From an uncultured Acidimicrobiaceae bacterium (GTDB lineage Bacteria > Actinomycetota > Acidimicrobiia > Acidimicrobiales > RAAP-2): DNA of 64,000 nucleotides. The stretch is from assembly GCA_963717035.1 (NCBI GenBank), contig CAVQVK010000051.1, positions 70,685-134,684 on the forward strand, written 5' to 3'. The notes under the pieces were generated by a model. That model saw only the letters and a list, made by a program, of their open reading frames with translations. It searched no databases and had not been told where the DNA came from. Made by a program: the position numbers and the translations under genes. Every line of letters starts with the position of its first letter. The first letter of the stretch is position 1. Positions 1-50,745 of this stretch are shown one piece after another.

Positions 1-1
1 T

Positions 2-136: not shown

Positions 137-175
137 GCCACACCCGTCGGTTGGTGTGCATGCCCCTGAGGCAAT

Positions 176-658: not shown

Positions 659-730
659 CGCCGGATCTTGGCATAGTCCCGCTGACCCGGCCGCTCGCCG
701 GTTGCCCGTCGGCACCGGGAGGAGGGCATC

Positions 731-1582: not shown

Positions 1583-1640
1583 ATTCTCGGCTCTGTCGAT
1601 TCTCGGCGCTGTCGATTCTCGGCTCTCTAGATTCTCGGCT
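1582..1640. repeat. 16-bp tandem repeat, about 3.7 copies (GATTCTCGGCNCTNTN)
   Basis: Read directly: gattctcggctctgtc / gattctcggcgctgtc / gattctcggctctcta / gattctcggct. Sits between convergent genes ending at 1582 (+) and 1665 (-). Confidence 0.9.
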
Positions 1641-1664
1641 GAAGCATGTGATCGTCGGCCGCAC

Positions 1665-3278: not shown

Positions 3279-3439
3279 CCACGGACTGTAGCGTCGCACC
3301 GTTATCGCTACACGTGTTCCGATGAAACCGGTGTCACCGACCACATACGGCCCGATGGTGAGCGTGTTGTCATCGGCAGCTGGGCCACGAAGGCCACACG
3401 CTGCCCCAGTTGCTAGAGCGGGAGAAGAAGTCCAAATTT

Positions 3440-6416: not shown

Positions 6417-6721
6417 GGAGTCTCCTGTACGAGAAATGGGCCTGGTTGTCAGGCCCACCGGGCAGGCGAACCGCGGTGTTGCCACGCTCGTTACGGCTAG
6501 ACACCCGGGCAGGTCCGGGCCATTGTAGAGGAATCGTTGCCGGCAATGGTGACACGTGCTCCGGCGGGCCTGGAGTGAGAGGTGATCTCAGCCTCGAGCT
6601 GTCCAACGTTTACCAATCCTCCTCCATATACCCGACGCCCAAAAGAGCCGGTAGCATCGGCGGCGGAATCGCCCGTGCGCGTACCTTTCTATGAAGTTGT
6701 GCACAGACCCGAGGAGCGACT

Positions 6722-7867: not shown

Positions 7868-7880
7868 GACCGTGAAGACA

Positions 7881-10144: not shown

Positions 10145-12781
<2,637 letters not shown>

Positions 12782-26808: not shown

Positions 26809-28576
26809 GCCGACCCGATCCGCATCGCCAACTGTTCGGGGTTCTTCGGGGACCGCTCTCGGCGCGCCCGCGAGATGGTCGAGGGCGGACCCATCGACGT
26901 CCTGACCGGGGACTGGCTGGCCGAGCTGACCATGCTCATCCTGTGGAAGGGGCGTCAGCGAGACCCGCTCGCGTGGTGGGCGCGAACCTTCCTCACCCAG
27001 ATGGAAGACGTCCTCGGCACCTGTGCCGACCGGGGCATCAAGGTGGTCACCAACGCCGGTGGCCTCAACCCCGCCGGACTGGCCGACCAGGTCCGGGCCC
27101 TGGCCGAGAAGCTGGGGCTGGGCATCACCGTCGCCCACGTCGAGGGCGACGACCTGGTCGCTCGCATCGGCGACCTGCAAGCGACAGGGCCACGACCTGG
27201 CCCACCTCGACACCGGGCCGGCCGCTGGCCGAGGCCACCGGCGAGGTGGTCACGGCCAACGCCTACCTGGGGGCATGGCCCATCGTCGAGTCGTTGCAAG
27301 GCGGGGCGGACGTGGTCATCTGCCCCCGGGTCACCGATGCGTCGCTGGTGGTGGGGCCGGCCGCCTGGCGCCACGGCTGGGACCAGACCGACTGGGACCG
27401 ACTGGCCGGCGCCGTGGCCGCGGGACACCTCATCGAGTGCGGGCCCCAGGTCACCGGGGGGAACTACGCATTCTTCACCGAGGTCCCCGGACTCGAGCAC
27501 CCGGGCTTCCCCATCGCCGAGGTCGCCGACGACGGGTCGTCGATCATCACCAAGCACCCCGGTACCGGCGGCGAAGTGTCGGTGGGCACGGTCACCGCCC
27601 AGCTGCTCTACGAGATCGCCGGCCCGACTACGCCAACACCGACGTCGTGGCCCGCTTCGACACGATCGAGCTCGAACAGGACGGCCCGGACCGGGTACGG
27701 GTGTCGGGGACCAGAGGCCTGCCCGCGCCGAAGGACGTGAAGGTGTCGATCAACCTGTTGGGAGGATGGCGCAACACGATGACCTTCGTCCTCACCGGGC
27801 TGGACATCGACGCCAAGGCCGCGCTCACCCTCAAGACAATGGCGGAGAAGCTGGGCGGCACCGACCAGTTCGCCGACTACGAGACGCTGCTGATCCGCTC
27901 GGACAAGCCCGACGCACCGACCAACGCCGAGGCCTCGGCCCAGCTCCGGGTCACCGTCAAGGACGCCGACCAGTCGAAGGTGGGTCGCCGGTTCGCCGAC
28001 GCGGCCACCGAGCTGGCCCTGGCCGGCTACCCCGGTTTCCACCTGACCTCGCCTCCGACCGACGCCACCGCTTACGGCGTGTTCTGGCCGGCGCTGGTCC
28101 CGGCCGGGCTGGTGGAGCCGGTCGTGGTCCACGCCGATGGCACCCGGGTGGCCGTTCCCCACCGGGCGTTTCGCTCCAGGTACCGCCCGGCCCTCCCCGC
28201 CGTTACGCCTGGTCGCCGAGTACCCGGCCGAGCCGGTGGCCCGGGTGCCCCTCGGCACGATCATCGGCGCTCGATCGGGCGACAAGGGAGGCAACGCCAA
28301 CGTGGGGCTCTGGGCCGGACGGGATACCCACTACGTCTGGCTGCGCGACTTCCTCACCGTCGAACGGTTCGCCGAGCTCCTGCCCGAGGCCGACGGGCTC
28401 GAGATCCACCGGTACGAGCTCCCGAGGGTGCTGGCCTGAACTTCGTCGTCGTCGGACTGCTGGGCGAGGGGGTGGCCTCCTCCACCCGGCCCGATCCACA
28501 GGCCAAGAGCCTGGGCGAGTACGTTCGGAGCAGGCTGGTCGACATCCCCGTCCACTTCCTGCCCGACGGCCGCTGA
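26805..28576 (+). CDS. AtuA-like acyclic terpene utilisation protein (DUF1446); multiple frameshifts
   Basis: IRIANCSGFFGDR...EMVEGGPIDVLTGDWLAELTM, ANAYLGAWPI, RVTDASLV and ECGPQVTGGNY, spread over 3 frames. The C-terminus ends at 28576. Confidence 0.7.
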
Positions 28577-28613
28577 ACGGGCTGCCGCAGCGACAATCGC
28601 AAGGAGCCGCGCC

Positions 28614-29779
28614 ATGGACTTCACCCAATCCGACGAGCACGTGATGCTGCGCGAGGCGGTCAGCGCCATCGCCTCCAAGTTCGGCCACGAGTACTACGTG
28701 GCCAAGGCCCGAGCCAACGAGCGGACCGAGGAGCTCTGGAACGCCATGGGCGAGGCCGGGTTCCTCGGGGTCAACGTCCCCGAGGAGTACGGCGGCGGGC
28801 GGCATGGGCATCACCGAACTGGCCATCGTGAGCGAGGAGCTGGCCGCGGCCGGCTGCCCGCTGTTGATCATGGTGGTGTCCCCGGCCATCTGCGCCACCA
28901 TCATCGCCAAGTTCGGTACCGAGGAGCAGAAGCAACGGTGGCTTCCCGGGTTTGCCACCGGGGAGATCAAGATGTCCTTTGCCATCACCGAGCCGGACGC
29001 CGGCTCCAACTCCCACAATTTGTCGCTCACCGCCACCAAGGACGGCGACATCTACCGCCTCAACGGGTCGAAGTACTACATCTCCGGCGTGGACGAGGCC
29101 GACGCCATGTTGGTGGTGACCCGTTCGGGCATCGACAAGGAGACCGGTCGGGGACGCCTGTCCCTCTTCGTGGTGGACACCGATCGCCCGGGACTGGAAA
29201 AGACGGTCCTGCCCGTGGAGATCACCGCCCCCGAGAAGCAGTACACGCTGTTCTTCGACAACGTCCAGGTCGATGCCGACCGGTTGATCGGAGCCGAGGG
29301 CGAAGGTCTCCGCCAGGTGTTCTTCGGCCTCAACCCGGAACGGATCCTCTCCGCCTCGCATGGCCAACGGGATCAGCCGCTATGTTCTCGACAAGGCGGC
29401 GAACTACGCCGGGGAGCGCGAGGTATGGGGCACGCCGATCGGGCGCCACCAGGGCATAGCCCACCCCCTGGCCAAGGCCAAGATCGAGGTGGAGCTGGCC
29501 CGGCTGATGACCGACAAGGCCAGCTGGCTGTGCGACAACGCCGGTGACACCCCCGAAGCAGGCGAGGCGGCCAATATGGCCAAGTACGCGGCGGCCGAGG
29601 CCACGGCGGCGGCGCTCGACCAGGCCATCCAGACCCATGGTGGGAACGGCATGTCCTCCGAGTACGGGCTGGCCGACCTGTGGGGCATGGTGCGCCTGCT
29701 GCGGATCGCGCCGGTCAGCCGGGAGATGATCCTGAACTTCGTGGCCCAGCACTCGTTGGGCCTCCCCAAGTCGTACTGA
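28614..29779 (+). CDS. Acyl-CoA dehydrogenase (2 frameshifts, near 28800 and 29355)
   Basis: FAITEPDAGSN, YISG and QTHGGNGMSSEYGLADLWG...RIAPVSREMILNF. Confidence 0.85.
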
Positions 29780-29916
29780 CCGGCGGACCGGCGGGGTAGG
29801 CGGTACGCTGGTCACTGCGGATCGCCCGTCCGAACAGAAGGAAACAGAAGGACCTGGTGACACTCTCCGGGCACCGCAACCCGCTCCGCATCACCGAAAG
29901 GCCCGGCAACGCCCCC

Positions 29917-31749
29917 ATGCAGTCCCGTGACGACATTCGCAACGTAGCCATCGTGGCTCACGTCGACCATGGGAAGACCACGCTGGTCGACGCCATGCTC
30001 TGGCAATCCGGCGCCTTCCGGGCCAACGAGTCGGTCAACGAGCGGGTGATGGACTCTGGCGATCTCGAGCGGGAAAAGGGCATCACCATCCTGGCCAAGA
30101 ACACGGCAGTGGTGCACAACGGCGTCAAGATCAACATCATCGACACTCCCGGCCACGCCGACTTCGGCGGTGAGGTGGAGCGGGGACTGACCATGGTCGA
30201 CGGCGTGCTCCTGCTGGTCGACGCGTCCGAGGGCCCGTTGCCCCAGACCCGGTTCGTGCTCCGCAAGGCCCTCCAAGCCCGACTGCCGGTCGTCCTGGTG
30301 GTCAACAAGGTGGACCGGCCCGACGCTCGCATCGACGAGGTGGTCAACGAGGTCGAAGAGCTCTTCTTGGACCTCGATGCCGACGAGCACCAGATCGACT
30401 TCCCCATCCTGTTCTCCAACGCCCGGGCCGGGTGGGCCGCCACCGAGCAAGGGGTGGAGGGCACCGACCTCGAGCCGCTGTTCCAAGCCATCCTCGACCG
30501 CATCCCCGCACCCCAGTTCGATCCCGATGCCCCGCTCCAGGCGATCGTGTCGAACCTGGACGCCTCTCCCTACCTGGGCCGGCTGGCCGTCTGCCGGGTC
30601 CACAACGGCACCTTGCGCAAGGGCGCGCTGGTGGGCTGGTGCAAGCTCGACGGCACCATCGAGCGGACCAAGATCACCGAGCTGTTCGTCACCGACGCCC
30701 TGGACCGGGTGGACGCGGCCGAAGCCGGCCCGGGCGAGATCGCCGCAGTGGCCGGCATGGCCGAGGTCACCATCGGAGAGACGCTGGCCGACCCCGACGA
30801 CCCCCGGCCCCTGCCCGTCATCACCGTGGACGAGCCCAGCCTGTCCATGACCATCGGGATCAACACCGCGCCCCTGGCCGGGTCGGACGGATCGAAGCTC
30901 ACCGCCCGCCAGATATTCAGCCGGCTAGAGTCCGAGCTGGTCGGAAACGTGTCACTCGCGCGTGCTCCCCACCGAGCGCCCCGACACCTGGGAGGTCCAG
31001 GGGCGGGGCGAGCTCCAGCTGGCCGTGTTGGTCGAGACCATGCGCCGCGAGGGTTTTGAGCTGACGGTGGGCAAGCCCCAGGTCGTAACCCGGGAGATCG
31101 ACGGCAAGGTCCACGAGCCCATGGAGCTGGTGGCCGTCGACGTCCCCGACGATTACCTGGGCGTGGTCACCCAGCTGATGGCGCTCCGCAAGGGAATGCT
31201 CGATCGAGATGGTCAACCACGGCACCGGTTGGGTCCGGATGGACTACCGGGTCCCGGCCCGAGGGTCTGGTTGGGTTCCGCACCGAGTTCATGACCGAGA
31301 CCCGGGGTACCGGCATGTTGCACCACGTGTTCGACGGGTGGGAACCCTGGCACGGCGAGCTCAAGACCAAGCGCAACGGCTCGATGGTGGCCGACCGGCG
31401 TGGCATTACCACCGGCTACACGCTGATGAGCCTGCAAGAGCGGGGCATCCTGTTCGTCGGACCGTCCACCGAGGTCTATGAGGGCATGGTCATCGGTGAG
31501 AACGCCCGGGACGAGGAGATGGACGTCAACCCGACCAAAGAGAAGAAGCAGACCAATGTGCGCTCGGCCTCGGCCGACGAGGCCATCCGGCTCACTCCCC
31601 CCCTCCTGCTCTCACTGGAGCAGGCTTTGGAGTTCATCGCCGACGACGAGTGCGTGGAGGTCACCCCGGCGAACGTCCGGCTCCGAAAGGTTGTCCTGGA
31701 CGGGCACACCCGGGGACGGCTGCGAAGCCGGAGCCGCAACCCGCGCTGA
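29917..31749 (+). CDS. typA: Translational GTPase TypA/BipA (about 3 frameshifts between 30950 and 31290)
   Basis: IRNVAIVAHVDHGKTTLVD, DTPGHADFGGEVER and NKVDR. The C-terminal domain ...VEVTPANVRLRK is in a second and third frame. Confidence 0.9.
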
Positions 31750-31862
31750 ACCTGGCGCGCCCGGCGACCGCCGGTAGCGCTTACGAGAATCTTCACAACC
31801 ACTCAGGTCTCTCTCGGTGAGCTCCCAGCTAACGCACAGAGGGGCCGGTCATAGTTTCCATC

Positions 31863-32480
31863 GTGACCAACAGATCCACACTCCGGACGATCTGGCTCGT
31901 CCGTCACGGTGAAAGCACGTGGAACGTACTCGGCCTGGTGCAAGGCCACGCAGACGAAGCCACCCTCACCCGGCAAGGTCGTCGCCAAGCACAGCTCCTG
32001 ACTCACCGGCTCGGTGGTCGCGTCATCGAATCCATTCACACCAGCGATCTCCGTCGCGCCCGAGAAACGGCGGCGATCCTCGCTGAGTCCCTGGGTCTCG
32101 AGGGCCGCCTGCACACCTCACTGCGGGAGCGGAGTATGGGCGTGCTCGAAGGCTCCCCGGTGAGCTCGCTCGACCCCAAGGTCACCGGTATCGAGGGCGA
32201 TCAGGTCGTGGACATCGATGCCCGGCCGAGCGATGGGGAGTCGCTCGCCGCCCTGTACCGACGGGCCGGCGAGTTCATCGACTGGCTGTGCGATCAGCCG
32301 GCTGACGCCGACGCAGTGGTCGTTACCCATGGCGGGACTGTTCGGATGATCCGCGCCTACTGCGCCGAACGTCCGGTTGAAGGCATGACCTGGGACACGG
32401 TGCCCAACGGCAGCCTGTGGCGTGTCCAGGTGCCGCGTCGTGACGCAGCTCACGGTCCGGCAGCAGTTCGAGCAATGTGA
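31863..32480 (+). CDS. Histidine phosphatase (phosphoglycerate-mutase-like) family protein
   Basis: Intact, GTG start. LVRHGESTWN (RHG motif) and VVVTHGGTVR. Confidence 0.75.
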   Translation: MTNRSTLRTIWLVRHGESTWNVLGLVQGHADEATLTRQGRRQAQLLTHRLGGRVIESIHTSDLRRARETAAILAESLGLEGRLHTSLRERSMGVLEGSPVSSLDPKVTGIEGDQVVDIDARPSDGESLAALYRRAGEFIDWLCDQPADADAVVVTHGGTVRMIRAYCAERPVEGMTWDTVPNGSLWRVQVPRRDAAHGPAAVRAM

Positions 32481-32493
32481 GACGGAGGATCAG

Positions 32494-33270
32494 ATGAACC
32501 CGACAGCACTCCAGCTACCCCGACGTGAAGCCAAGCCGAGGTCGGCCGGCATCACCATGATGGTCGACGGGGGTCTGCCTACCCGGTACTTCGCCGACGT
32601 CATCGCCAGTGGCGCCGAGTACCTCGACTTCGTCAAGTTCGGTTGGGGAACGGCCATCGTCACCAAAGACCTGCGCGAGAAGATCGACATCTTGCGCAAT
32701 GCCGGCGTCGACTACTACTTCGGGGGAACCCTCTTCGAGAAGTACGTCTTCCAGGATCGGCTCGATGCCTTTCGCGACCTTTGTCATGAGTACTCGTGCC
32801 AGTTCGTGGAGGTGTCCAACGGGACGATCGATCTCAGCAACTCGGAAAAGGCCGGGTACATCAGGAAGCTCTCCGACGACTTCCGAGTGATCTCCGAGGT
32901 CGGGTTCAAGGACCCCAATCGGTCCGAGAACCTGGCACCTAGTCTGTGGATCGAGTGCACCCACGAGGACCTCGACGCCGGGGCCTGTCTGGTCACCCTG
33001 GAAGCTCGGGAGAGCGGCAAATCGGGCATCTGTCGACCTGACGGTCAACTTCGGTTCGGTCTGATCGAAGAGCTGCTGGCCAGCGGACTTCGCCACCAGG
33101 ACCTCCTGTTCGAGGCACCCTCGGTGGAGCTGCAGAACTACTTCGTGAAACGAGTGGGGACGGACGTCAACCTGGGCAACGTGGCTGCCACCGCCATCTT
33201 GGGGCTCGAGACCATCCGGCTCGGGCTCCGGGCCGACACGCTGACCTGTTTCGACAGCGGGGCGGCGTGA
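32494..33270 (+). CDS. comA: (2R)-phospho-3-sulfolactate synthase (ComA family)
   Basis: Intact. ATG preceded by GGAGG. KPR..G.T...D.G, YLD.VKFGWGT, VE.SNGTI and ...ISEVG.K... match the ComA/YitD family as I recall it. Confidence 0.75.
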   Translation: MNPTALQLPRREAKPRSAGITMMVDGGLPTRYFADVIASGAEYLDFVKFGWGTAIVTKDLREKIDILRNAGVDYYFGGTLFEKYVFQDRLDAFRDLCHEYSCQFVEVSNGTIDLSNSEKAGYIRKLSDDFRVISEVGFKDPNRSENLAPSLWIECTHEDLDAGACLVTLEARESGKSGICRPDGQLRFGLIEELLASGLRHQDLLFEAPSVELQNYFVKRVGTDVNLGNVAATAILGLETIRLGLRADTLTCFDSGAA

Positions 33271-33674
33271 GAGACGGCGGTGACGCCTTCCACCTGGCCA
33301 TCCCGGCCTATGACCTGGCCGAGTCGGAGCATTTCTATGTCGATCTGCTCGGTTGCAAGCTGGCCCGGCGCTACCAGGACCGCATCACCCTCGACTTCTT
33401 CGGTGATCAGGTGGTGTGCCACCTGACCGACCGGCCGGCGGACACCGGAGGCGAGCTGGACCTGTACCCGCGGCATTTCGGGGTGACCTTCCGGCGGGGC
33501 CGGGACTTCGACGCCGTCCATCGATTGTGCGTCCAGCGGGAGGTCCCCGTGTTCCGACAGGTCTCAACCCGGTTCGAAGGGAAGGCCGAGGTGCACCGAA
33601 CCTTCGTGGTTCGAGACCCATCGGACAACCTCATCGAGTTCAAGCACTACGCCGATCCCCGGATGATGTACTGA
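33267..33674 (+). CDS. VOC (glyoxalase/bleomycin-resistance/dioxygenase) family protein
   Basis: Intact 135 aa. The GTG overlaps the comA stop (GTGA). FHLAIPAYDLAESEHFYVDLLGC...RHFGV...DPSDNLIEF. Confidence 0.6.
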   Translation: MRDGGDAFHLAIPAYDLAESEHFYVDLLGCKLARRYQDRITLDFFGDQVVCHLTDRPADTGGELDLYPRHFGVTFRRGRDFDAVHRLCVQREVPVFRQVSTRFEGKAEVHRTFVVRDPSDNLIEFKHYADPRMMY

Positions 33675-33675
33675 T

Positions 33676-35277
33676 ATGTCCGTCGACAGCCAACTGCGCC
33701 GGCGGCCGACCACGACCGCACCCGGGAACGCCATCGCCGAGTTGGTCCGGTCCCGGTCGCTGCTCTACGGCGATGCCGTCTATCTGACCGAGGCCAGAGG
33801 GTTCAGGCAGGTCTCGTTCCGCGACCTCGAGCATCGGGTGGCCTCCCGGATCGCCGGGCTCGACGATCGAGCTGTGGCCGCGGACGCAACGGTGGGCATC
33901 GCCGTCGCCGACCCTCTTGAGTTCGCGGTGCTCTTCCTGGCCGTCATGGCCTCTGGTCGCTGGGTGGCCCCCCTCGACCCGAGCAGTTCGCCCGAAGCCA
34001 TCGCCACTGCCGTATCCCGCCTCGAGATCGCCCTCATGGTGTCCGACGGCGGGCCCCGGGTCACCCCCGACCTCGACTGGACCGACGCCGGGGGAGACCC
34101 TCGCTCGTGTGCGCCGGTGCCCATCGAGCGTGCGCTCGAGGAAGGGGCCCTGAGCCCCGCCGGAATGGGAGGCGCCCTCCTGGCCTCGTCGGGAACCACG
34201 GGAGTGCCCAAGGTGGTCCCCGTCTATCAGGGCCGTCTGCTCCACGCCGCCCGTGCCGTCGCCACCCATCACCGTCTCTCGCCCGGGGACACGGGGTTCA
34301 ACCCCCTCCCCCTGTTCCACATCAATGCCGAGGTGGTCGGGTTGCTGGCCGGCCTGGTGGCCGGGTCCAACCTGGTGCTCGACGACCGGTTCCATCGGAC
34401 CGGGTTCTGGGCGTTGATGGCCCGCCACGACGTGACGTGGATCAACGCCGTCCCCGCCATCATCTCCTATCTGGCTGATCCCGATTCCGACGAGGCCGTT
34501 CCACCCGGGATCCGGTTCGTCCGCTCAGCATCAGCCCCCCTGCCGGCGGCCACCCTGTGCCGGTTCGAGGCCAACACGGGCATCCCCGTGCTCGAGACCT
34601 ACGGCATGACCGAGGCGGCCAGCCAGATTGCAGCCAACCCGCTGACCGGAACACGAAAGCCCGGTTCGGTGGGACGGCCGGTTGGCGTCGAGCTGCGGAT
34701 CTCCTCTGACGAGGGTCCAGACACACCGGCGGGGGGTGCGATCGAGCGAGCCCCGATCGACTCCGCACGCCCGGGCCACGTCGAGATCCGAGGGCCGTCG
34801 GTCATCACCGCCTACGGCGGCAACGGCCACCGCGACAAGTTCACCGACGATGGCTGGCTGAGAACCGGAGATCTGGGCTTCTTCGACGACGACGGCTATC
34901 TCTATCTGGTCGGGCGCACCGACGACGTGATCAACCGGGGTGGCGAGAAGGTCTACCCGAGAGACATCGAAGACGCCATCCTGGTCGACGCCGACGTCGC
35001 CGCCGCCGCGGTGGTTGGCGGCGACGACGCAGTGCTCGGCCAGGTGCCGGTGGCCTTCCTGGCGCTGAAGAACGGTGTCGATGTCGCTCACGCCGATACC
35101 GTCGCGTACATCGTGAACCGGATACGCAAGCACCTCGATGCCACGTTGGTACGCAGCCAGCAGCCGGTAGCCGTGCACGTGGTCGAGCGATTGCCGACCG
35201 GAGCCAACGGGAAGGTGCAGCGGCGGTCCCTCCGCCAGCAGCGGCCCCCGACCCTGTTCAGCCTCGACTGCCGATGA
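33676..35277 (+). CDS. Adenylate-forming enzyme (AMP-dependent synthetase/ligase, ANL superfamily)
   Basis: Intact 533 aa. SSGTTGVPKVV, YGMTEA, TGDLG..D.DGYLYLVGRTDD.INRGGEKV.P.DIE and the C-terminal catalytic GK. Confidence 0.85.
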   Translation: MSVDSQLRRRPTTTAPGNAIAELVRSRSLLYGDAVYLTEARGFRQVSFRDLEHRVASRIAGLDDRAVAADATVGIAVADPLEFAVLFLAVMASGRWVAPLDPSSSPEAIATAVSRLEIALMVSDGGPRVTPDLDWTDAGGDPRSCAPVPIERALEEGALSPAGMGGALLASSGTTGVPKVVPVYQGRLLHAARAVATHHRLSPGDTGFNPLPLFHINAEVVGLLAGLVAGSNLVLDDRFHRTGFWALMARHDVTWINAVPAIISYLADPDSDEAVPPGIRFVRSASAPLPAATLCRFEANTGIPVLETYGMTEAASQIAANPLTGTRKPGSVGRPVGVELRISSDEGPDTPAGGAIERAPIDSARPGHVEIRGPSVITAYGGNGHRDKFTDDGWLRTGDLGFFDDDGYLYLVGRTDDVINRGGEKVYPRDIEDAILVDADVAAAAVVGGDDAVLGQVPVAFLALKNGVDVAHADTVAYIVNRIRKHLDATLVRSQQPVAVHVVERLPTGANGKVQRRSLRQQRPPTLFSLDCR

Positions 35278-36611
35278 CCGCTCTATTGCCGATGACCGCA
35301 AGCGTCGACGCCCTCATCGATGTCGACGATGCCAGCGCGGCACCCGCACCCGACCGCCCACCGCGCTCGACGCCGCCCGACCACGATGCTCCGGTCACCC
35401 CCGAACCCGCGGCCGCAACAGGCACCCGCAAGCGCCTCGATCACATCGACGCCATGAGGCCGGTGAAGCAGGCCGGCGTGATCGGGACTCACACCCTGCT
35501 GGCCTTTGCCCCGGTGGCCGCCACCGTCGCCGCCGGCGCGTCGCTGATGTTGTTGCACGTGACCCGCGAGGCCTTCTTGTTCGTGTCGGCCTGCATGCTC
35601 ACCTTCAGCTACGGCCAGACCAAGCGCATGGACCCGGGCCCGTTCTTCCGGCGCCGGTTCTGGTCAGTGGGCGTGCCCTACCTGTGCTGGACGCTCATCT
35701 ACTTCCTCTTCTTGCTCCCCACCACCTACCAGAGCCTGCCCACTGCCCTGGGGCACCTCGGCTACCTGATGGCCACCGGCTACTACCAGCTCTACTACCT
35801 GATCGTGGTGGCCCAGTTCTACGTGGTGTTCCCGCTGCTGTTGCTGCTCGTCCGGCGCACCAAGGGTCACCATCGCGCCCTGTTGGCTGTCAGCGGTGTG
35901 ACGCAGCTGCTCACCGTGAGCCTGATGCACTGGAACCTGCTGCCGCCGGACATGCGCGGGTTCTGGGCCAGCCGCGAGATCACCTCGTACCAGTTCTACC
36001 TGATCGCCGGCATGGTGGTCGCCCTCCATCTCGATGCCGTGCACGCCTGGTTGACGAGCCACGTCCGCCTGGTCGTGGTCGCAACCTTGGCCAGCGCGGC
36101 GATCGCAGAGGCCTGGTACTACCTGGCCGCCGACAACGTGATCAGGTGGCTCGGATCGAGCTCGGACCCGTTTCAGCCGATCGTCATCCCCTTCAACATC
36201 GGGGCCATCGCCTGCATCTACCTGATCGGGGTGGCCCTGGTCGACCGGCATCGTTCTCATCGCTTCCGCGCCATCGTCCAGTCGGGATCTGACAACGCCT
36301 ACGGCATCTACCTGGCCCAGATGATCTTCATCACCCTGCTCGGCTGGCTGGGATGGCGGAACCTCGACAGCGTGTTGCCGTGGCCGCTCGTCGCCGTCGT
36401 CACCGTGGCCGTCGTGTTCGTCGCCTGCATCGCCCTCACCGCCGTCTTGGCCCGGACCCCGTGGTCCAAGGCGCTGACCGGGCGATCCCGGGCCTCGTGG
36501 CGGTCGTTGCACCCGCGCCGAGACGCTCCAGCGGCTTCAGTCGGTGCCACCCCTGCCTCCGGCGCCCGGACATCAGTGTCGAAGGGCGACAGCCCGCTGG
36601 AACCGGCGTGA
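35274..36611 (+). CDS. Acyltransferase family 3 (AT3) integral membrane O-acyltransferase
   Basis: Intact 445 aa; the ATG overlaps the ligase stop (ATGA). RLDHIDAMRPVKQAGVIGTH motif and about 10 TM segments. Confidence 0.75.
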   Translation: MTALLPMTASVDALIDVDDASAAPAPDRPPRSTPPDHDAPVTPEPAAATGTRKRLDHIDAMRPVKQAGVIGTHTLLAFAPVAATVAAGASLMLLHVTREAFLFVSACMLTFSYGQTKRMDPGPFFRRRFWSVGVPYLCWTLIYFLFLLPTTYQSLPTALGHLGYLMATGYYQLYYLIVVAQFYVVFPLLLLLVRRTKGHHRALLAVSGVTQLLTVSLMHWNLLPPDMRGFWASREITSYQFYLIAGMVVALHLDAVHAWLTSHVRLVVVATLASAAIAEAWYYLAADNVIRWLGSSSDPFQPIVIPFNIGAIACIYLIGVALVDRHRSHRFRAIVQSGSDNAYGIYLAQMIFITLLGWLGWRNLDSVLPWPLVAVVTVAVVFVACIALTAVLARTPWSKALTGRSRASWRSLHPRRDAPAASVGATPASGARTSVSKGDSPLEPA

Positions 36612-36617
36612 ATCCGA

Positions 36618-37505
36618 CTAGCCGCCGCCCAGGGCCGTCTCGATGGCCTGGCTGATGACTCGGTAGCCATCGGCGTTGGGGTGCTGGTTCGGCCCGTAGG
36701 GCCGTGCCGCGCACATCCAGGTGAGCGCACAGATGCGGGCCACGTTGCGCGGGACGATCCCCACCCCGTTCACGACGGTCGGCTCGGTGCTCGTCGTATT
36801 GAACGACCCGGCCACGTCAGCCATAGGGATCCCGTAGCTGGCGTAGATCGAGTGCAAGGACTGGTCGAGTTGGGAGAGGGCGCTGAGGCTGGCCGAGGCC
36901 AGCACCCGCCCGCCCGGACCGCGGAGGTAGGCCCCGAGGTACGGGTCATAGTGACCGATGCCGACGATCCGCAGCCCCGGACCACCGGCCGCCTGCAGCG
37001 CGGCGAGGATCTGGGGCAGCTGTTGGTCGACCAGCTGAATGGACTGGTCCACGCACGCCTGGTTGACCTGTCCGTGTCCGATGCAGGTCCGCAGGTTGTT
37101 GAACCCGAGGTCCACCGTGACCAGCACAGTGCTGTGGGAGTGGAGGAAAGCGACCGCAGTGGCCAGCTGGGTCCCCCCGGGATAGGTGCAGTGGCCGCCG
37201 CCCTCGAGCATGGTGGCCGTGGTCGCTCCGGGGCATCCGATCTGGGCCAGCTGGAGGTTGGGCCAGGTGGATTGCATCTCGTTGACCAGGTCGTCGGCAT
37301 AACCGGCTTCGGTCGGCTGGCCATGGGGTCGCGCCGCAGTGGGCTGAAAACCCACCGACGCCGACCCGCCGACATCCAGGTAGTACTGGGAACCGGTGGT
37401 GGCCGCGTCGGCTCTCCCGGGCATCCATGCTCCGCCCAGCAAGAGAGCGAGCCCCAGGGCTACGGCGAGTGGCAGTGTTCGCCACAGCCGTCGCGGTGGC
37501 TTCAT
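36618..37505 (-). CDS. Secreted SGNH/GDSL-like hydrolase
   Basis: Signal peptide MKPPRRLWRTLPLAVALGLALLLGGAWMPGRADA. Block I-like VGGSASVG. Block V-like QHPNADGYRVISQAI. Confidence 0.65.
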   Translation of the reverse strand: MKPPRRLWRTLPLAVALGLALLLGGAWMPGRADAATTGSQYYLDVGGSASVGFQPTAARPHGQPTEAGYADDLVNEMQSTWPNLQLAQIGCPGATTATMLEGGGHCTYPGGTQLATAVAFLHSHSTVLVTVDLGFNNLRTCIGHGQVNQACVDQSIQLVDQQLPQILAALQAAGGPGLRIVGIGHYDPYLGAYLRGPGGRVLASASLSALSQLDQSLHSIYASYGIPMADVAGSFNTTSTEPTVVNGVGIVPRNVARICALTWMCAARPYGPNQHPNADGYRVISQAIETALGGG

Positions 37506-37608
37506 TGAATATCTCCTACGTGGAAACCGGGGCCCGGGACGCGACCGACGTGGGCCGACCAGCTGGCTAATCGTACTTGATGACCGCCCACAGTCGGAGT
37601 CAGGCTCT

Positions 37609-38844
37609 TCAGCGAGAGGCGAGGAAATGCGCAACCTGGTCCGTTACGAACGAGATGTCGTCATCGGACATACCGTGATTGGACGGCAGGACGAGCCCAG
37701 CCTCCATGATCCGGTCTGACACTGGAAGCCCTCGAGCAGGAGATCGATAGCCAACTCCCTTCAGCATGGGCTGTCTCGTCGCATTGCCCGTCCAGACCGT
37801 CCTCGTTTCCACGCCGTGACCGTCGAGGAACTCCTGCATGGCCGGGCGATCGAAACCCGCGTCCGGTCGAATTGTCAACGGATAGCAGAGCCATGCCGTG
37901 TCAACCTCGGGCAACTGTCTCGGCACCACGAAGCGGTCCTGGTGCTGACCGAAGAACTCGTTGTAAAGACGGAAGTTCCTTTGTCGCCTGAGCTGATTGT
38001 CTGGAAGCTTCTTGAGCTGCTCGAGTCCGAACGCCGCCCCCATCTCGGACGGCTCGAAATTCCATGCCAGCTCATCGAAGATGAATTGGTTGTCATAGTT
38101 GATTCCGTCCAGGTCTTCCCAGAAGTTCCGATCCCGTCTCTTCGATCCAAAGAAGTGCAACTCCGACCGCCGCCCCCACCTTCGCAAGAGCAGCGCCCGG
38201 TCGCGGTCTGCTTGTTCGTTGACGAGGAGCATGCCGCCTCCGCCCCCACAGGTGATGATGTGCGATGAAGCGAAGCTGGTCACGCTGAAGTCGGATCGCG
38301 ATCCACTGGGGGTCCCTCTCAGGATGGCCCCCAGAGCGTCACACGAGTCCTCGATGACGGCGATCCCATGATGATCGGCGATTGTGCGGATGGCATCCCA
38401 ATCGGGAACGTTCCCAATTAGATTTGGGATGAGGAGAGCGCGGGTCCGGTCGGTGATCATCGCTTCGATCTGGCCCACATCGACTACGTACGTGTCCGGT
38501 TCGACATCGACGAAGACAGGAACGAGACCGGCTCTGACGATCGGGGCGATATCGGTTGAGAAGGTAACAGCTGAACCGATCACTTCGTCTCCCGGCTGCG
38601 CGCCTAGAAGTTCAACTGCCAGGTACAACGCCGAACTTCCGGAGTTCACCATGACTCCGGCATCCTTGCCAAAGAGAGCGGCGATCGCCCGCTCCATCGC
38701 ATTGACCCTCTTGCCAACCCACAATCCTCTGGGGTCCCGCAAAACCTCCACTACCGCATTGATCTCTGCTTCGTCGTGGACACTTGCTGCGTAGAACACT
38801 TGTCGAGGTGCAGTGCCCTCACCCATGCTGTCGTCCTCCCTCAT
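37609..38844 (-). CDS. DegT/DnrJ/EryC1-family PMP-dependent sugar 3-dehydratase-like protein (RfbH/E1/ColD type)
   Basis: Intact; alternative ATG at 38826. Aminotransferase fold motifs (NSGSSAL, IEDSCDALG). The Schiff-base lysine position reads His (SFASSHIITCGGGGG). NFWEDLDG...YDNQF block. Lower G+C by eye. Confidence 0.7.
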   Translation of the reverse strand: MREDDSMGEGTAPRQVFYAASVHDEAEINAVVEVLRDPRGLWVGKRVNAMERAIAALFGKDAGVMVNSGSSALYLAVELLGAQPGDEVIGSAVTFSTDIAPIVRAGLVPVFVDVEPDTYVVDVGQIEAMITDRTRALLIPNLIGNVPDWDAIRTIADHHGIAVIEDSCDALGAILRGTPSGSRSDFSVTSFASSHIITCGGGGGMLLVNEQADRDRALLLRRWGRRSELHFFGSKRRDRNFWEDLDGINYDNQFIFDELAWNFEPSEMGAAFGLEQLKKLPDNQLRRQRNFRLYNEFFGQHQDRFVVPRQLPEVDTAWLCYPLTIRPDAGFDRPAMQEFLDGHGVETRTVWTGNATRQPMLKGVGYRSPARGLPVSDRIMEAGLVLPSNHGMSDDDISFVTDQVAHFLASR

Positions 38845-39068
38845 AAGCGTTTGACGAGTCGTTGACGATGTTTGCGCTCCATGGCCCGAGGCGGCCCGAG
38901 CGCCGCTGCCGAGCGTCAGATGCGTGTTGATTATGGCCGAAGGAAGCATCGAAGCATCGCGCCAGCGGATCGGGCGTAGTCATGGGGTTCTGACGAGTAC
39001 CTGCCATGTTGAAGCCCCCCGCCCGGGGGGCCAGCGGGCCTGTAGCACCCTCTGGGTAGATTCTTCTG

Positions 39069-41871
39069 GTGCCCTCGATCCTGTCCGGCCCGCCTGAGCT
39101 CGGCCGCAGCGTCGTGGTGCTGCCCGGGGGCCCCGTTCCGACACCCTGGGAGGGCGCACCCCATCTCGTGGTCGACGCGGCGACGCTGGTGAGCCCTCGC
39201 CAAGCGGTCGACACGCTCCACGCGGCCTGGGCCGACCGCCGCACGATGGTCGTGGAGCTCGGCGTCGACACCGACCAGCTCCGGGCCCGACAGCGATGCG
39301 ACGAGCCGCCATACGCCCTGACGCCCGCCTTCGAGCTGGAGCTCGAGCGCCTTCAGTTCCTGGTCTGGGCCAATGCCTACGATGCCCGCAACGGCGAGCT
39401 CATCTGGTGGCACGGGCGCAAGGCCGCTCGCCGCTTCGCCGAAGAGGGTGTGGGCCTGGGCGGCGACGCCGACATCACACTGGCCGACGGCACCGCAGTC
39501 TTCATCGACGGCGGACCCTCCCATCCCCCGCAACTGGGATCGGGGCTCGAGGTCGTCCATCGATGGAACGCCGAGGCCGGTGTGCTCCGCTTCGCCCGAC
39601 ACGGAGCTCCCGGTCTCGCCGCGGCACGAGCCGACGGGGAGGGAGCCGACGGGGCCTCACCGGACCCAGGATCCGGCGCGGCGTTGGCCCCCGACCAGCT
39701 CGCCGCGGTGGTCCACGGCTCGGGACCGGCCAGGATCATCGCGCCGGCGGGGTCGGGCAAGACCCGGGTCCTGACCGAGCGGCTCCGCCACCTGGTGGCC
39801 GATCGGGGCGTCGACCCCGCCGCCGTGACCGTCCTGGCCTACAACGCCAAGGCCGCCGACGAGCTCCGGGACCGGTGCACCGACATCGTCACCGCCGGGG
39901 GCCCGGCCATCCGCACGCTCAACAGCATCGGGCTGTCCATCTGCAACCAAGCCGGAGGTCGCGACCGGCTCCGGGTCTTGGACGAGGTAGGGGCGCGGCG
40001 AGCTGGTGGGGTTGGTGTTCGAGATCAGGCACCGGGCCAACACCGACACCGTCGTGCCCTACCTCGAAGCACTGTCGGCCATCCGGCTCGGGCTGGTCGA
40101 CCCGGAACGAGCCGAGGAGGACTACCCCGATGCCACCGGCGTGGCCGAGGGGTTCGACCGCTACCGTGAGGCGCTGGTGGCGGCCCACTCCGTCGACTTC
40201 GACGAGCAGATCTTCCGGGCCATCGAGATCCTGTTGACCGACCCCGATGCCCGGGACCGGGCCCAAGAGCGGTGCCGGTACCTCTTGGTTGACGAGTTCC
40301 AGGACTTGAACCCCGCCCATCTCCTGCTCATCCGGCTCCTGAACGCCCCCGGCTTCGACTGCTTCGGGGTGGGGGACGACGACCAGGTCCTCTACGGATA
40401 CTCGGGCGCAACCCCGGAGTACCTGATCCACTACGACCGCTACTTCCCCGGTGCCGCCCACCATGCGCTGGAAGTGAACTACCGGTGCCCCCCGGTCGTG
40501 GTCGGCGCCGCGGACCATCTCCTCACCTACAACCGGGAGCGAGTGGTCAAGACGATCCGGGCGGCACCGGGGCGTACCTCCGAACCGGAAGGGCTCATCG
40601 TCCGAACGGCCACCGGCGAGCAACTGGCCTCGGTAGCCACGGACATCATCTCGGGCTGGCGGGAGGGCGGCGCGGAGCTGACCGACATGGCCGTGCTGAC
40701 TAGGGTCAACTCGGCACTGCTGCCCATCCAGGTGGCACTGAGCGAGGCGGGCGTTCCCTACGCATCCACCCTGACCGCCCGGGTGCTCGGGCGCACCGGG
40801 GTGCGCACCGCCTTCGCCTACCTGCGCATGGGGGTGAACCCGGAGCGGATCGCTCGTCGGGACATCGAGGACACCGTGCGCCGACCCTCCCGGGGCATCG
40901 CCCCCAACGTGGTCTCCATGTTGACCAAGCGATCCCACACGTCGGTCGAGGAGATCAGGCGACTGGCGGGAAGCCTTTCCGGCCGGGACGTCCCCAAGTT
41001 GTCGGCCTACGCCGACGACATCGAGCGCGTCGCCGCCGCCTGCGCCAAACCCACGGCGCTGGCCCTGCGCACCATCCGGGTCGAGCTCGGTCTGGGTGAG
41101 ACCATGGACGTCCTCGACGCTTCCCGGGACGAGCCCGACCGGTCCACCCACAACGACGATCTCCAAGCCCTCGAGTCGGTCGCCGCCTTCCACCCGGACG
41201 TCGCCACCTTCGCCACGTGGCTGCGCGGCGTACTCGAACGGCCGCACGCGGAAGGTCCCGCCATCTTGCTGTCCACCGTGCACCGCATCAAAGGTCGCGA
41301 GTGGGACCGGGTGATCGTCTTCGGGGCCTCATCCGACATGTTCCCCCACCGGCTGGCCGAGGACATCGAGGGCGAACGGCGGGTATTCCACGTCGCCCTC
41401 ACCCGAAGCAAGGTGCAAACGGTGGTGCTGGCTGACGCAACATCGCCATCGTTCTTCGTGGACGAGCTCGATGGGAGCAGGTCGCACGACCGCCCCGAGC
41501 GGCTCGCCCCACCGAAGCGCGCCGACGGCCCGGCGGGAGCAGCGGCCAAGAAGCCCAAAGCCGGTGACCGGTATCAGCCTGTCGAGGCCACCGCGGCCAG
41601 CGGCGACCTTCGGGCCTGGCGAACGGAGAAGGCCCGGGAGGCGGAGATGCCGCCATACGTGATTCTCAGCGATCGCCACCTGGAAGGCATCGTCGAGGCC
41701 GCCCCGACCACCTTGGCCGCGCTGGCCACCTGCAAGGGGATCGGCCCGATGAAACTGGAGCGGTGGGGCGACGAGATCCTGGCTGTGCTCGGCCGAGCCC
41801 GCGGGGCGACGGCAGCGACGCCTGAGCGGACGCCCTCCGTTGTGCGCACGGCGTGGGTTCCCGGCGTGTGA
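39069..41871 (+). CDS. UvrD/Rep-family helicase with a ~200-aa N-terminal domain of unknown function and a C-terminal HRDC-like domain (1 frameshift near 40000)
   Basis: APAGSGKTRVL (motif I), LLVDEFQD (II), VNYRCP (III), STVHRIKGREWDRVIV (V) and VALTRSK (VI). The tail LRAWR...AREAEMPPYVILSDRHLEGIVEAAPTTLAALATCKGIGPMKLERWGDEIL is HRDC-like. Confidence 0.8.
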
Positions 41872-48377: not shown

Positions 48378-48446
48378 CACCGACGGCTACCGCTCGGTAG
48401 AACCACCAACGCTCGTCATGCCGCTTAATGATCCAGTCCGCACGAG

Positions 48447-48519
48447 CTCCGGGGGGAGGGCTCGAACCTCCAACATCCGGCTCCAAAGGCCGACGTTCTG
48501 CCGATTGAACTACCCCGGA
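48447..48519 (-). tRNA. tRNA-Gln (anticodon UUG), no encoded CCA
   Basis: Manual cloverleaf on the reverse complement: acceptor TCCGGGG/CCCCGGA; D stem GTTC/GAAC; anticodon stem TCGGC/GCCGG with loop CTTTGGA; variable loop ATGTT; T arm GGAGG-TTCGAGC-CCTCC. Confidence 0.85.
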
Positions 48520-48700: not shown

Positions 48701-49372
48701 ATGAAGATCCTCGTGGTCGACGACGACCCATCGGTCAGCGCCGCGCTCAACCGCGCCCTGCGGCTCGAAGGCTACGAGGTGGCGGTGGCCGGCGACGGTC
48801 CCGCCGCCCTGGAGGAGATCGCCGTCAGGCCACCCGACGCCGTCGTATTGGACATCCAGCTGCCCACGCTCGACGGGCTCGAGGTCTGCCGCCGGATGCG
48901 GGCCGCCGGCGACGACACGCCGGTCCTGATGCTCACGGCCCGGGATGCCATCAACGACCGGGTCCAGGGGCTCGATGCCGGCGCCGACGACTACCTGGTG
49001 AAGCCCTTCGCCCTGGCCGAGCTGCTGGCCCGGCTCCGCGCCTTGCTTCGGCGCCGGCACGACGACGCCGGCGAGATCCTCCGGTTCGGCGATCTCTCGC
49101 TTGACCCGGGGAGCAGGGAGGCTCGGCGGGGCGACCGTGAGTTCACCCTCACCCGCATCGAATTCGATCTCCTCGAGCTCTTGTTGCGCCATCCCCGTCA
49201 GGTCCTCACCCGGGAGGTCATCCTCGACCGGGTGTGGGGCTACTCCTTCGACTCGGGCACCAACTCGTTGGCCGTCTACGTCGGCTACCTGCGCCGAAAG
49301 ACAGAAGAGGGTGGCGAGCCCCGGCTGATCCATACGGCCCGGGGCGTCGGTTACGTCCTTCGCGAGCAGTGA
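48701..49372 (+). CDS. OmpR/PhoB-family response regulator
   Basis: Intact. MKILVVDDD...[10 protein letters not shown]...LTARD...[10 protein letters not shown] plus a winged-helix C-terminus (...ARGVGYVL). Confidence 0.9.
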
Positions 49373-50745
49373 CCTTTCGGGCCCGCTTGGTCATGGCGGC
49401 CACCACCGCCGTGGTCATCGCCGTCGTGCTGGCCGCGGTGGCCGCCTACGTGGTGTCCAACAACTCGTTGATCGGCTCCATCGACGACACCTTGACCCAG
49501 CAGGCCCAAGCCCTCGCCAGCCCGAACACCCAGATCACGAACGGATGCACCACCACCTCGGGGCAGTGCATCCAAGTGGTGCCGCCCAACGGCGACACTG
49601 GAACCGGCGCGGTCGTCGTACCGGTGACCCCCTCGGTACTGGCCGTGGCTTCCGGGCAAAGACCGGGGTACTTCAGCAATGTGACCATCCACGGTGTCGA
49701 TGCCCGCGAAATCGTGTACCCGGTACCCAACTTCATCCGCTACACGCTGTCCGACGGTGGGCCAGGCCTCATCGACCGGGGCGCTCTCCAACTGACGGCG
49801 CCACTGACCGGGGTGAACAAGGAGCTGCGGAGCCTCGCTCTCGACCTGTGGGTCATCGCCGCCGTCGGCGTCACCCTGGCTGTCTTGTTGGGGTTGCTCG
49901 TGGGCCGCACCGCGTTGGTGCCGCTGAACAGCCTGACCGAGGCGGTCGAGGAGCTGGCCGAGACGACGGACGTCTCCCAGCGTCTGGATGCAGGCGGCCC
50001 CGACGAGCTGGGTCGGCTCCGGCGGGCCTTCAACCGCCTCCTGGCCGCATTGGACTCCTCCCGGGATGCGCAACGTCAGCTGGTCCTCGACGCCTCCCAT
50101 GAGCTCCGCACGCCGCTCACCAGCCTCAAGACGAACATGGAAGTGGCCCGCCGGCTCAACGAGCTGGCTCCCGAAGAACGCGACGTCCTGATCGGGGACG
50201 TGCTCACCCAACTGGACGAGCTCACCAGCCTGGTCGGCGACCTGTCCGAACTGGCCCGAGGCGAGGTGCCCGCTCTGGCCTCGGGGATCGTCAGCTTGGA
50301 CAGCGTGGTGGCCGACGCGGTCTCGGCGGCCATCACCCACGGGCGCAGCCGCAATGTGACCTTCGCCGCCACCATCCAACCGAGCCTGGTGTCCGGGTCG
50401 AGGAACCGCCTCGAACGGGCCATCGGCAACCTGCTCGACAACGCGCTCAAGTGGAGCCCGGACGGTGGCGTGGTCGAGGTGTCCTGTATCGCCGGGACGG
50501 TCGTCGTGCGCGATCACGGACCAGGGATCAGCGACGACGACCTCGTCCACATCTTCGACCGGTTCTACCGCGCCCCCGCGGCCCGGGGCCGACCGGGATC
50601 GGGGCTGGGCCTGGCCATCGTGGCCCAGGTGGCTCGGGAAGAGGGGGGATCGGTCATTGCCGGTCACGCCCCCGGGGGTGGAGCGATCTTCCGGTTCGCC
50701 CTGCCCGAGCTGCAGGTCACCGACCTCCCGGTGGACACCGACTGA
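49369..50745 (+). CDS. Sensor histidine kinase (HAMP + HisKA + HATPase_c)
   Basis: GTG overlaps the response regulator stop (GTGA). Two TM segments, H-box [11 protein letters not shown]-box [14 protein letters not shown] and GSGLGLAIV. Confidence 0.85.

Follow-up and report, generated by a model that had tools for sequence, protein, structure and literature searches.

We analysed a 64,000-nucleotide stretch of DNA from an uncultured Acidimicrobiaceae bacterium (assembly GCA_963717035.1, contig CAVQVK010000051.1, positions 70,685 to 134,684; hereafter the window, with a GC content of about 68%), in which five co-directional genes encode a histidine phosphatase, a ComA-family phosphosulfolactate synthase, a small metalloenzyme of the VOC family, an ANL adenylating enzyme (the ligase) and an AT3 membrane acyltransferase, and face a gene for a secreted SGNH protein on the other strand (Table 1). 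An initial annotation, made from the sequence alone, had described the five genes as intact and tightly packed and had proposed that they work together. The open reading frames (ORFs) and a base-level reading bear out this description. The phosphatase gene ends with a TGA at 32478-32480, followed by a ribosome-binding site (GGAGG) and by the ComA ATG at 32494; the ComA and VOC genes overlap by a GTGA (33267-33270), a single nucleotide separates the VOC gene, ending at 33674, from the ligase gene, starting at 33676, and the ligase and AT3 genes overlap by an ATGA (35274-35277). This packing suggests that the genes of the module are co-translated. The stop codons of the AT3 gene (36609-36611) and of the SGNH gene (36618-36620, reverse strand) leave 6 nucleotides between these convergent genes, as had been read before. 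A scan of positions 31000-39500 for promoters and terminators gave nothing above shuffled expectation.

The domain calls on all six proteins passed the Pfam gathering scores, including the ComA, AT3 and SGNH assignments made earlier by eye, and public data hold a protein (P0391) identical to the 295-residue SGNH product. Among 30 of the larger remaining ORFs Pfam recognised housekeeping functions only, in agreement with the earlier statement that the window carries no carrier-protein, sulfite-forming or comB/C/D/E genes.

Table 1. Position of the module genes and of the adjoining SGNH gene in the window
Feature	Coordinates	Strand	Remarks
Histidine phosphatase (branch 1) ORF	31863..32480	+	205 aa; proposed phosphosulfolactate phosphatase replacing ComB
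GGAGG ribosome-binding site	32484..32488	+	5 nt ahead of the ComA ATG; read from the bases
ComA/YitD-family phosphosulfolactate synthase ORF	32494..33270	+	258 aa from the ATG
VOC (glyoxalase-fold) metalloenzyme ORF, narrow ComA-linked subfamily	33267..33674	+	135 aa
ANL adenylating enzyme ORF, oxalate/malonate-CoA-ligase clade	33676..35277	+	533 aa
AT3 integral-membrane acyltransferase ORF	35274..36611	+	445 aa
Secreted SGNH/GDSL protein ORF, convergent with AT3	36618..37505	-	295 aa from MKPPRR

Conservation of the gene set

We surveyed gene neighbourhoods with ComA as the anchor and one genome per GTDB species. Of at least 593 stretches that encode ComA relatives, we retrieved the best 80 (63-91% identity) together with flanks of 10 kb and searched them by tblastn with the window proteins. 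These 80 species-level genomes include Acidimicrobiaceae, Streptosporangiaceae, Trebonia, Nocardiopsis and others, and the nearest ComA relatives, with 90-91% protein identity, come from metagenome-assembled genomes (MAGs) of uncultured soil Acidimicrobiaceae. Directly downstream of ComA we found VOC in 78 of 79 assessable loci, and 72 of 77 have the histidine phosphatase as the immediate upstream neighbour. Both ligase and AT3 follow ComA in all 71 loci that could be assessed, accompanied by VOC in 70 of them; with one gene set shared by 70 of 71 loci, the arrangement lies far outside chance expectation. The order of the last two genes varies (ANL-AT3 in 55 loci, AT3-ANL in 16), and the flanks represent at least five unrelated gene contexts, which argues for selection on the co-occurrence of these genes and not for inherited synteny. 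ComA (63-91% identical to the window protein) and VOC (57-89%) are the most constrained members, while the ligase (40-86%), AT3 (28-85%) and the phosphatase (38-71%) drift faster. The gene set moves and is kept as one unit; it is a genuine module, conserved widely and across phyla. The earlier proposal that the five genes form one functional module is therefore strengthened by their recurrence across the 80 genomes and, as described below, in other phyla.

The surroundings of the module are more variable. The SGNH gene of the window type, in convergent orientation, was present in 49 of 69 loci. In loci of the Streptosporangiales type a divergent pair of genes encoding a HAMP-HisKA kinase and an OmpR-type regulator flanks the module (24 loci), and a different secreted GDSL protein is encoded beyond this pair in 17 loci; the flanking two-component system hints at envelope-stress control. 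A search by tblastn with E. coli AcpP detected no acyl carrier protein (ACP) in the window or in any fetched locus.

A second AT3 paralogue, 30-40% identical, accompanies the module in L027 (6649-9317) and in about 35 other Acidimicrobiaceae loci. In some of these its gene sits directly upstream and overlaps one for a class I/II aminotransferase; in others it separates the module AT3 from the SGNH gene. Two of the loci carry doubtful taxon labels: L083, a 151-kb contig with the module and a GC content of 0.58, is labelled Candidatus Saccharibacteria, and L068, a 1.7-kb contig, is labelled Silvibacterium. We also considered a fusion of histidine phosphatase and ComA (P0119) as Rosetta-stone evidence and rejected it, its contig (L004) being full of fragmented genes; the only other case in which the two form a single ORF, L063, is also a long-read MAG.

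Separable halves in other phyla

Contexts in other phyla were collected with the sequence of 3RRI, a structure related to the module VOC, as bait. In Alicyclobacillus acidoterrestris the genes for ANL, a major facilitator superfamily (MFS) protein and AT3 lie on one strand and face GDSL, ComA and VOC genes on the other. A Ktedonobacterales contig has the order ANL-AT3-HTH-ComA-VOC, where HTH stands for a helix-turn-helix protein, and a 1.2-Mb metagenome contig carries GDSL, response regulator, kinase, HTH, ComA, VOC, ANL and AT3 genes. Ferroacidibacillus (L094) has ComB (PF04029), ComA and VOC only, as overlapping genes. In Sulfobacillus-like genomes the VOC gene is found with genes for a 2-hydroxyacid dehydrogenase, sometimes an MFS protein, and MurJ-type flippases, and no ComA gene lies within 8 kb.

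The reverse search was carried out by scanning an alignment of the module AT3 proteins against metagenome contigs, which gave 35 matches with enough upstream sequence. ComA or VOC was adjacent in 27 of these and the ligase in 28, and two contigs (L166 and L163) carry ANL-AT3-SGNH with neither ComA nor VOC. The occurrence of ANL-AT3-SGNH by itself in these contigs and of ComB-ComA-VOC by itself in Ferroacidibacillus shows that the module consists of two separable halves, one of supply (phosphatase, ComA and VOC) and one of delivery (ANL, AT3 and often SGNH).

Genes for D-2-hydroxyacid dehydrogenases were located adjoining the module in L002 (8282-9244; a type B Acidimicrobiaceae), and beside the stand-alone VOC and MurJ flippase genes of Sulfobacillus-like bacteria in L087 (6953-7933) and L095 (5541-6524). 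In L095 an MFS gene stands between the dehydrogenase and VOC genes, and a sulfotransferase gene is nearby. The plasmid contexts of more distant VOC homologues in Geminocystis, Variovorax and Thioclava, with a LysR regulator and an FAH-family neighbour, were uninformative. Lone AT3 relatives (L132, L171 and L136) were inspected for clues to the acceptor, and their neighbours are unrelated genes.

Several of these taxa (Alicyclobacillus, Sulfobacillus, Ferroacidibacillus, peat and palsa MAGs, Trebonia) suggest a link with acid habitats, as read from the organism names only. Another link between the ComA family and acid conditions comes from Corynebacterium glutamicum, whose ComA homologue cg2797 forms an operon with cg2796, is repressed by DtxR and is induced 3.2-fold at pH 6 vs pH 7 (PMC2627906), although the gene context of cg2797 differs from that of the module.

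The proposed supply enzymes

ComA matches PF02679 over model positions 2-243 of 243 (E 6e-79; 265 bits vs a cutoff of 25.2). Its nearest solved relative is the phosphosulfolactate synthase of Bacillus subtilis (1U83, E 4e-76), followed by ComA of Methanocaldococcus jannaschii (1QWG, E 5e-45). The alignment with these relatives shows that the motifs FVKFGWGT, GGTLFE, VE(V/I)SxG, EVGxK, EARESG, FEAP and LETxRxGLRxDT are kept, every motif common to 1U83 and 1QWG being retained. M. jannaschii K137, which we take to be a catalytic residue, has its counterpart in the Lys of EVGxK. Against TIGR03849, the equivalog of the archaeal, coenzyme M (CoM) type, the protein scores 217 bits, below the cutoff of 280. 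Among plasmid-borne ComA homologues, the best matches (38-39% identity) come from two alkene degraders, Nocardioides sp. JS614 and Mycolicibacterium chubuense NBB4.

The phosphatase belongs to branch 1 of the histidine phosphatases (PF00300, His_Phos_1; E 6e-42) and has all the catalytic motifs (VRHGES, SDLRRA, RERSMG and THGG). Its nearest solved relatives act on small molecules: they are alpha-ribazole-phosphate, phosphoserine and glucosyl-3-phosphoglycerate phosphatases. Phosphosulfolactate is a close analogue of 2,3-bisphosphoglycerate in which a sulfonate replaces one phosphate ester. The protein has no match to PF04029, the ComB family, and resembles ComB by position only. We found no ComB in any actinobacterial locus among the 80 fetched, and no comB/C/D/E or xcb-type genes in the window ORFs scanned or in the 80 loci. 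In Ferroacidibacillus, ComB is encoded in the slot that the histidine phosphatase takes in 72 of 77 loci, and since it occupies this slot the phosphatase appears to be a non-orthologous replacement of ComB, which lends support to the same suggestion in the initial annotation.

VOC (PF00903, E 1e-11) is about 60% identical to 3RRI, an uncharacterised Alicyclobacillus structure from structural genomics (E 4e-49). Its subfamily is narrow, with only 8 representative clusters at E<=1e-30 among 1.84 billion proteins. H9, H70 and E124, a 2-His-1-Glu set, are invariant, as are R34, H52, Y67, K126 and Y128, and R39, R69, R102 and H110 are nearly so. An AlphaFold2 (AF2) model (mean predicted local distance difference test, pLDDT, 87.7) matches 3RRI with a template-modelling (TM) score of 0.84, and the nearest folds besides 3RRI include the fosfomycin-modifying metalloenzymes FosA and FosB, in which a metal and a small oxyanion substrate form a chelate. 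By likeness to FosA, H9, H70 and E124 are predicted metal ligands; this likeness and the invariant residues fit the chelation of a small, polyanionic substrate at a metal site.

A precedent for the reaction of VOC comes from a natural product. The misNOPQ genes in the cluster for misaugamycin, a type V glycopeptide of Streptomyces sp. WAC00631, encode an ACP as well as an acyl-CoA ligase, a ComA homologue and a glyoxalase, and, by the authors' prediction, provide misaugamycin-B with its 2-sulfoacetyl N-acyl tail, the alternative tail being malonyl; sulfite feeding favours the sulfonated congener (PMC9136965). Because of this 2-sulfoacetyl group, the group transferred by the module is likely to be sulfoacetyl rather than sulfolactyl. 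The isomerisation of sulfolactate, which had been suggested as the role of VOC, is in the light of this precedent judged less likely than a shortening of the C3 acid to sulfoacetate. VOC most likely converts sulfolactate, probably to sulfoacetate, and this is the weakest step of our model.

The proposed delivery enzymes

The ligase contains PF00501 (AMP-binding) and PF13193 (AMP-binding_C). Its nearest solved relatives are oxalate-CoA ligases (5IE0, E 1e-64; 8AFF and 6QJZ, to 6e-58), followed by MenE (2-succinylbenzoate-CoA ligase) and then by MatB, the malonyl-CoA synthetase. K513, the A10 catalytic Lys in the motif GKV, is invariant. The protein reaches no NCBIfam equivalog cutoff and falls outside every named orthologue group. 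The initial annotation had the enzyme activate sulfolactate or a derivative of it; the membership of a clade of CoA ligases for small anionic acids agrees with the general idea, and the favoured substrate has now become sulfoacetate, which is isosteric with malonate.

The hallmarks of AT3 proteins are about 10 transmembrane helices and a conserved Arg-X10-His in the first of them. The module AT3 (PF01757, Acyl_transf_3; E 2e-27, 96.8 bits vs a cutoff of 31) has about 9-10 hydrophobic segments, and D59, R62 and H73 (R-X10-H), H95, R98 and E99 are invariant across phyla. The SGNH protein matches PF13472 (Lipase_GDSL_2; E 4e-10) and has one N-terminal, signal-like hydrophobic segment (residues 10-28). 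S48 (in GGSAS), G90, N136, H275 and six Cys are invariant, and there is no Asp three residues before the His. Its AF2 model (pLDDT 85.7) is nearest to the folds of secreted lipases and esterases, including phospholipase A1 (TM 0.5-0.6), and no OatA or OafB match appeared in the top 50 of the fold search, which does not discriminate between the transferase and the esterase type. Thus, of the earlier idea that AT3 works with a split SGNH partner, the association of AT3 with the ligase is upheld by their common occurrence, but SGNH as a universal partner is not, given the frequency of the window type. It is possible that the SGNH protein is an extracytoplasmic transferase or a trimming esterase, as a lineage-specific accessory.

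A proposed pathway and its alternatives

We propose that the five-gene module makes a small sulfonated acid, activates it on coenzyme A (CoA) and feeds it to a membrane acyltransferase, a reading to which we give an even chance of being right. We infer all the chemistry downstream of ComA. By its family membership, ComA would add sulfite to phosphoenolpyruvate (PEP) to yield (2R)-phospho-3-sulfolactate, and the histidine phosphatase, as the displacement of ComB suggests, would convert phosphosulfolactate to sulfolactate. VOC, with an Fe(II) in its 2-His-1-Glu site, would then turn sulfolactate and O2 into sulfoacetate, CO2 and H2O, which is the simplest stoichiometry. C1 would be lost before the thioester is formed, and this sequence of events matches both the gene order ComA-VOC-ANL and the existence of ligase-free ComB-ComA-VOC operons. 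The ligase would convert sulfoacetate to sulfoacetyl-CoA, an isostere of malonyl-CoA, from which AT3 may form an ester with an acceptor, located at the membrane or beyond it and most likely an envelope glycopolymer or glycolipid. In Acidimicrobiaceae the secreted SGNH protein may complete the transfer or trim the modification. Aerobic monoderm soil bacteria would in this way carry on their envelope a sulfonate group whose negative charge is permanent; the carrier taxa named here are, as far as is known, aerobes.

A bolder version, which we think less likely than not, holds that sulfoacetate is ester-linked to an envelope polymer in many aerobic, often acid-tolerant monoderm soil bacteria (Acidimicrobiia, Streptosporangiales, Alicyclobacillus, Ktedonobacteria), as a permanently charged decoration new to the literature, and that the ComA-linked VOC, the orthologue of 3RRI, is a new O2-dependent oxidative decarboxylase of sulfolactate and thereby the missing biosynthetic route to sulfoacetate.

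Several observations weigh against this pathway. The activities, metabolites and modified polymer ascribed to the module are all predictions from its genes. The reaction of VOC is guessed from a single natural-product precedent, the Mis cassette, which we compared by description. The ORFs scanned in the window offer no source of sulfite. Some genomes have ComB-ComA-VOC with no ANL or AT3 nearby, and the product of VOC may also be an end product; conversely, 8 of the 35 AT3 relatives have neither ComA nor VOC within 6 kb. In a few lineages a 2-hydroxyacid dehydrogenase gene adjoins VOC or the module; it may mark an alternative route, in which VOC would act on sulfopyruvate rather than on sulfolactate. 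No genes for the synthesis of a glycan or of another acceptor are consistently linked to the module across the loci. Finally, the SGNH protein of the window resembles a generic secreted esterase or lipase, and the SGNH proteins of different lineages, which are other PF13472 proteins, are not homologous to it at the BLAST level.

The same module might transfer a C3 sulfolactyl group, with the ligase activating sulfolactate directly and VOC acting as an epimerase, or in some other non-oxidative tailoring step, on sulfolactate or sulfolactyl-CoA. Such a route needs no C-C cleavage, the gene content shows no obvious redox partner, the VOC family includes a single-domain epimerase of comparable size, that of methylmalonyl-CoA, and the clade of the ligase takes C3-C4 acids too, malonate and o-succinylbenzoate among them. 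We nevertheless think it unlikely: the sole chemically characterised product tied to a cassette of ComA, VOC and ligase is 2-sulfoacetyl, the ligase-free operons argue that VOC acts on a free acid and not on a CoA ester, and the H-H-E triad fits FosA and the extradiol dioxygenases but not the H-Q-H-E of the epimerase. A little less doubtful, in our estimation, is that the sulfo-acyl-CoA is real and that AT3 acylates a small molecule or a membrane lipid (a secreted metabolite, a glycolipid or something like a sulfonolipid), with SGNH as an unrelated or hydrolytic neighbour. AT3 proteins that lack a fused SGNH domain include antibiotic and Nod-factor acyltransferases, a PlsC-type acyltransferase is encoded near type C loci, and both the lack of consistently linked glycan-synthesis genes and the fold of SGNH, nearest to secreted lipases and phospholipase A1, would suit a lipid or small-molecule acceptor. 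On the other hand, the modules lie in housekeeping contexts and not in biosynthetic gene clusters, which requires an acceptor that cells ordinarily contain; secreted or anchored SGNH proteins, unrelated to each other, recur near the module in four lineages, and the two-component systems that flank it in 24 loci are of an envelope type.

It could also be that two unrelated functions are merely located together, phosphatase-ComA-VOC making a soluble sulfonate (a compatible or spore solute) and ANL-AT3 adding an ordinary acid to the envelope. The halves do occur separately, and in Bacillus spores sulfolactate is known as an end product, but translational coupling runs across both the VOC/ANL junction, with its 1-nucleotide gap, and the ANL/AT3 junction, with its ATGA overlap; the halves stay together in 70 of 71 loci, in rearranged orders and in three phyla, and the type of ligase suits a small anionic acid, which makes simple co-location improbable. 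Least credible of all, to the point that we give it next to no weight, is a pathway of CoM biosynthesis or of sulfonate catabolism or detoxification. ComA is the first enzyme of CoM synthesis and ComA homologues occur in the CoM clusters on plasmids of alkene degraders; however, those homologues are only 38-39% identical, the module ComA falls under the archaeal equivalog cutoff, comB/C/D/E and xcb-type genes were not found in the window ORFs scanned or in the 80 loci, and AT3 has no role in CoM synthesis or in sulfonate degradation.

If the proposed sulfonated decoration exists, an ester of a C-sulfonate would be a new class of envelope decoration beside the acetyl, succinyl, D-alanyl, lysyl and pyruvyl groups. 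The group would keep its negative charge whatever the pH, a property of possible importance in the acidic soils, peat and mine waters inhabited by many carriers. Functions would be obtained for the orphan structure 3RRI, for a non-canonical phosphosulfolactate phosphatase and for an AT3 with a custom-made donor, and a cassette of sulfonate supply seen once in an antibiotic cluster would turn out to be mainly a module of primary metabolism, spread over three phyla. Among uncultured Acidimicrobiaceae, which are abundant in soil, the pathway would also be a sink for sulfite and PEP. It is open to direct tests in Alicyclobacillus acidoterrestris, which can be cultured and has the cluster.

Other features of the window

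Just upstream of the SGNH gene and on the same strand lies a gene (37609-38949, - strand), unmentioned in the initial annotation, for a DegT/RfbH-like pyridoxal-phosphate-dependent sugar aminotransferase or dehydrase (RfbH model, E 8e-81). Its GC content at third codon positions (GC3) is 0.69 vs 0.81-0.90 in its neighbours. On account of this atypical codon composition and of its confinement to the closest relatives (L001 and L007), we rejected it as a member of the module; it is probably a recent insertion.

Several housekeeping genes of the window appear frameshifted (29857-31749, 26875-28644, 39069-41871 and 10145-12745). typA/bipA is in three ORF pieces, an atuA-like gene and a uvrD-like helicase gene are split, and one reading frame joins the C-terminus of enolase to DivIC and DUF501. 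On the related contig L001, typA, atuA and the uvrD-like helicase gene have intact orthologues. These breaks are probably indel errors of long reads, and the five module genes are intact.

The first 10 kb of the window (1-10000) have a GC content of 0.60-0.67 and carry genes for a TIG-domain protein, an FkbM-type methyltransferase, a GT4 glycosyltransferase and a membrane protein with a weak likeness to DUF2079, under the Pfam cutoff; this region may be an acquired, glycan-related island. A two-component system is encoded at 48764-50745 (+ strand), 12 kb from the module, and its regulator and kinase are 55% and 40% identical, respectively, to those of the pair flanking the Streptosporangiales-type modules. 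The sole RNA gene or Rfam match of the window is a tRNA-Gln (anticodon TTG; 48446-48519, - strand).

Comparison with known systems

The closest known system is misNOPQ, which likewise brings together a phosphosulfolactate synthase, a VOC protein and an acyl-CoA ligase in one operon, a likeness drawn from its description and from predicted mis roles. There, an ACP delivers the group to a peptide made by nonribosomal peptide synthetases within a natural-product cluster, whereas the module has AT3 and no ACP, and a histidine phosphatase is added. The initial annotation knew of no sulfonated acyl decoration delivered by an AT3/SGNH pair. The trio of ComA, VOC and ligase has already been reported (PMC9136965) and is not new, while its coupling to AT3/SGNH appears undescribed: literature searches on sulfoacetyl or sulfolactyl polymers, on sulfolactate with VOC and on phosphosulfolactate with acyltransferases returned nothing relevant besides the misaugamycin paper.

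With ComA-ComB of methanogens and YitD-YitC of B. subtilis spores the module shares the family of the first enzyme and a phosphatase as the next step. It differs in that its phosphatase has an unrelated fold, that ComC/D/E are absent and that VOC, a CoA ligase and AT3 are added. Because these three follow in the module, sulfolactate would be an intermediate and not the end product. The activation step has a functional parallel in SauT of Cupriavidus necator, an AMP-forming sulfoacetate-CoA ligase of sulfoacetate degradation, and since SauT makes it, sulfoacetyl-CoA is a real metabolite. SauT would resemble the module ligase in function; unlike the latter it is catabolic and is linked to a sulfoacetaldehyde dehydrogenase, not to an acyltransferase. 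Sulfoacetyl-CoA is also discussed in PMC10413351.

On the side of delivery, OafA/OafB, OatA and the succinyl transferases SucT (Rv1565c), OpgC and ExoH share with the module an Acyl_transf_3 protein with the invariant Arg-X10-His, and in the module an SGNH gene is nearby. In those systems the donor is a central metabolite, acetyl- or succinyl-CoA, for which no synthesis genes are needed, whereas the module would use four dedicated enzymes to make its donor. The two-domain architecture of OafA and OatA is not seen, the SGNH protein of the module being encoded by a separate PF13472 gene and not present as a fused PF19040 domain. DltABCD, the system for D-alanylation of teichoic acids, is similar in combining an ANL enzyme that activates a small acid, a polytopic membrane acyltransferase that carries it outward and an SGNH-like extracytoplasmic protein for the last step, for the tuning of envelope charge. 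However, DltB is an MBOAT protein, the carrier DltC is required and the group is cationic, whereas the module has AT3 and its group would be strongly anionic. Anionic acyl groups do occur on actinobacterial wall polysaccharides: SucT, which we presume to be of the AT3 type, provides the example. It succinylates lipoarabinomannan and arabinogalactan (PMC10503756). Taken together, the module joins a known kind of supply cassette for a sulfonated acid to a known kind of membrane acyltransferase.

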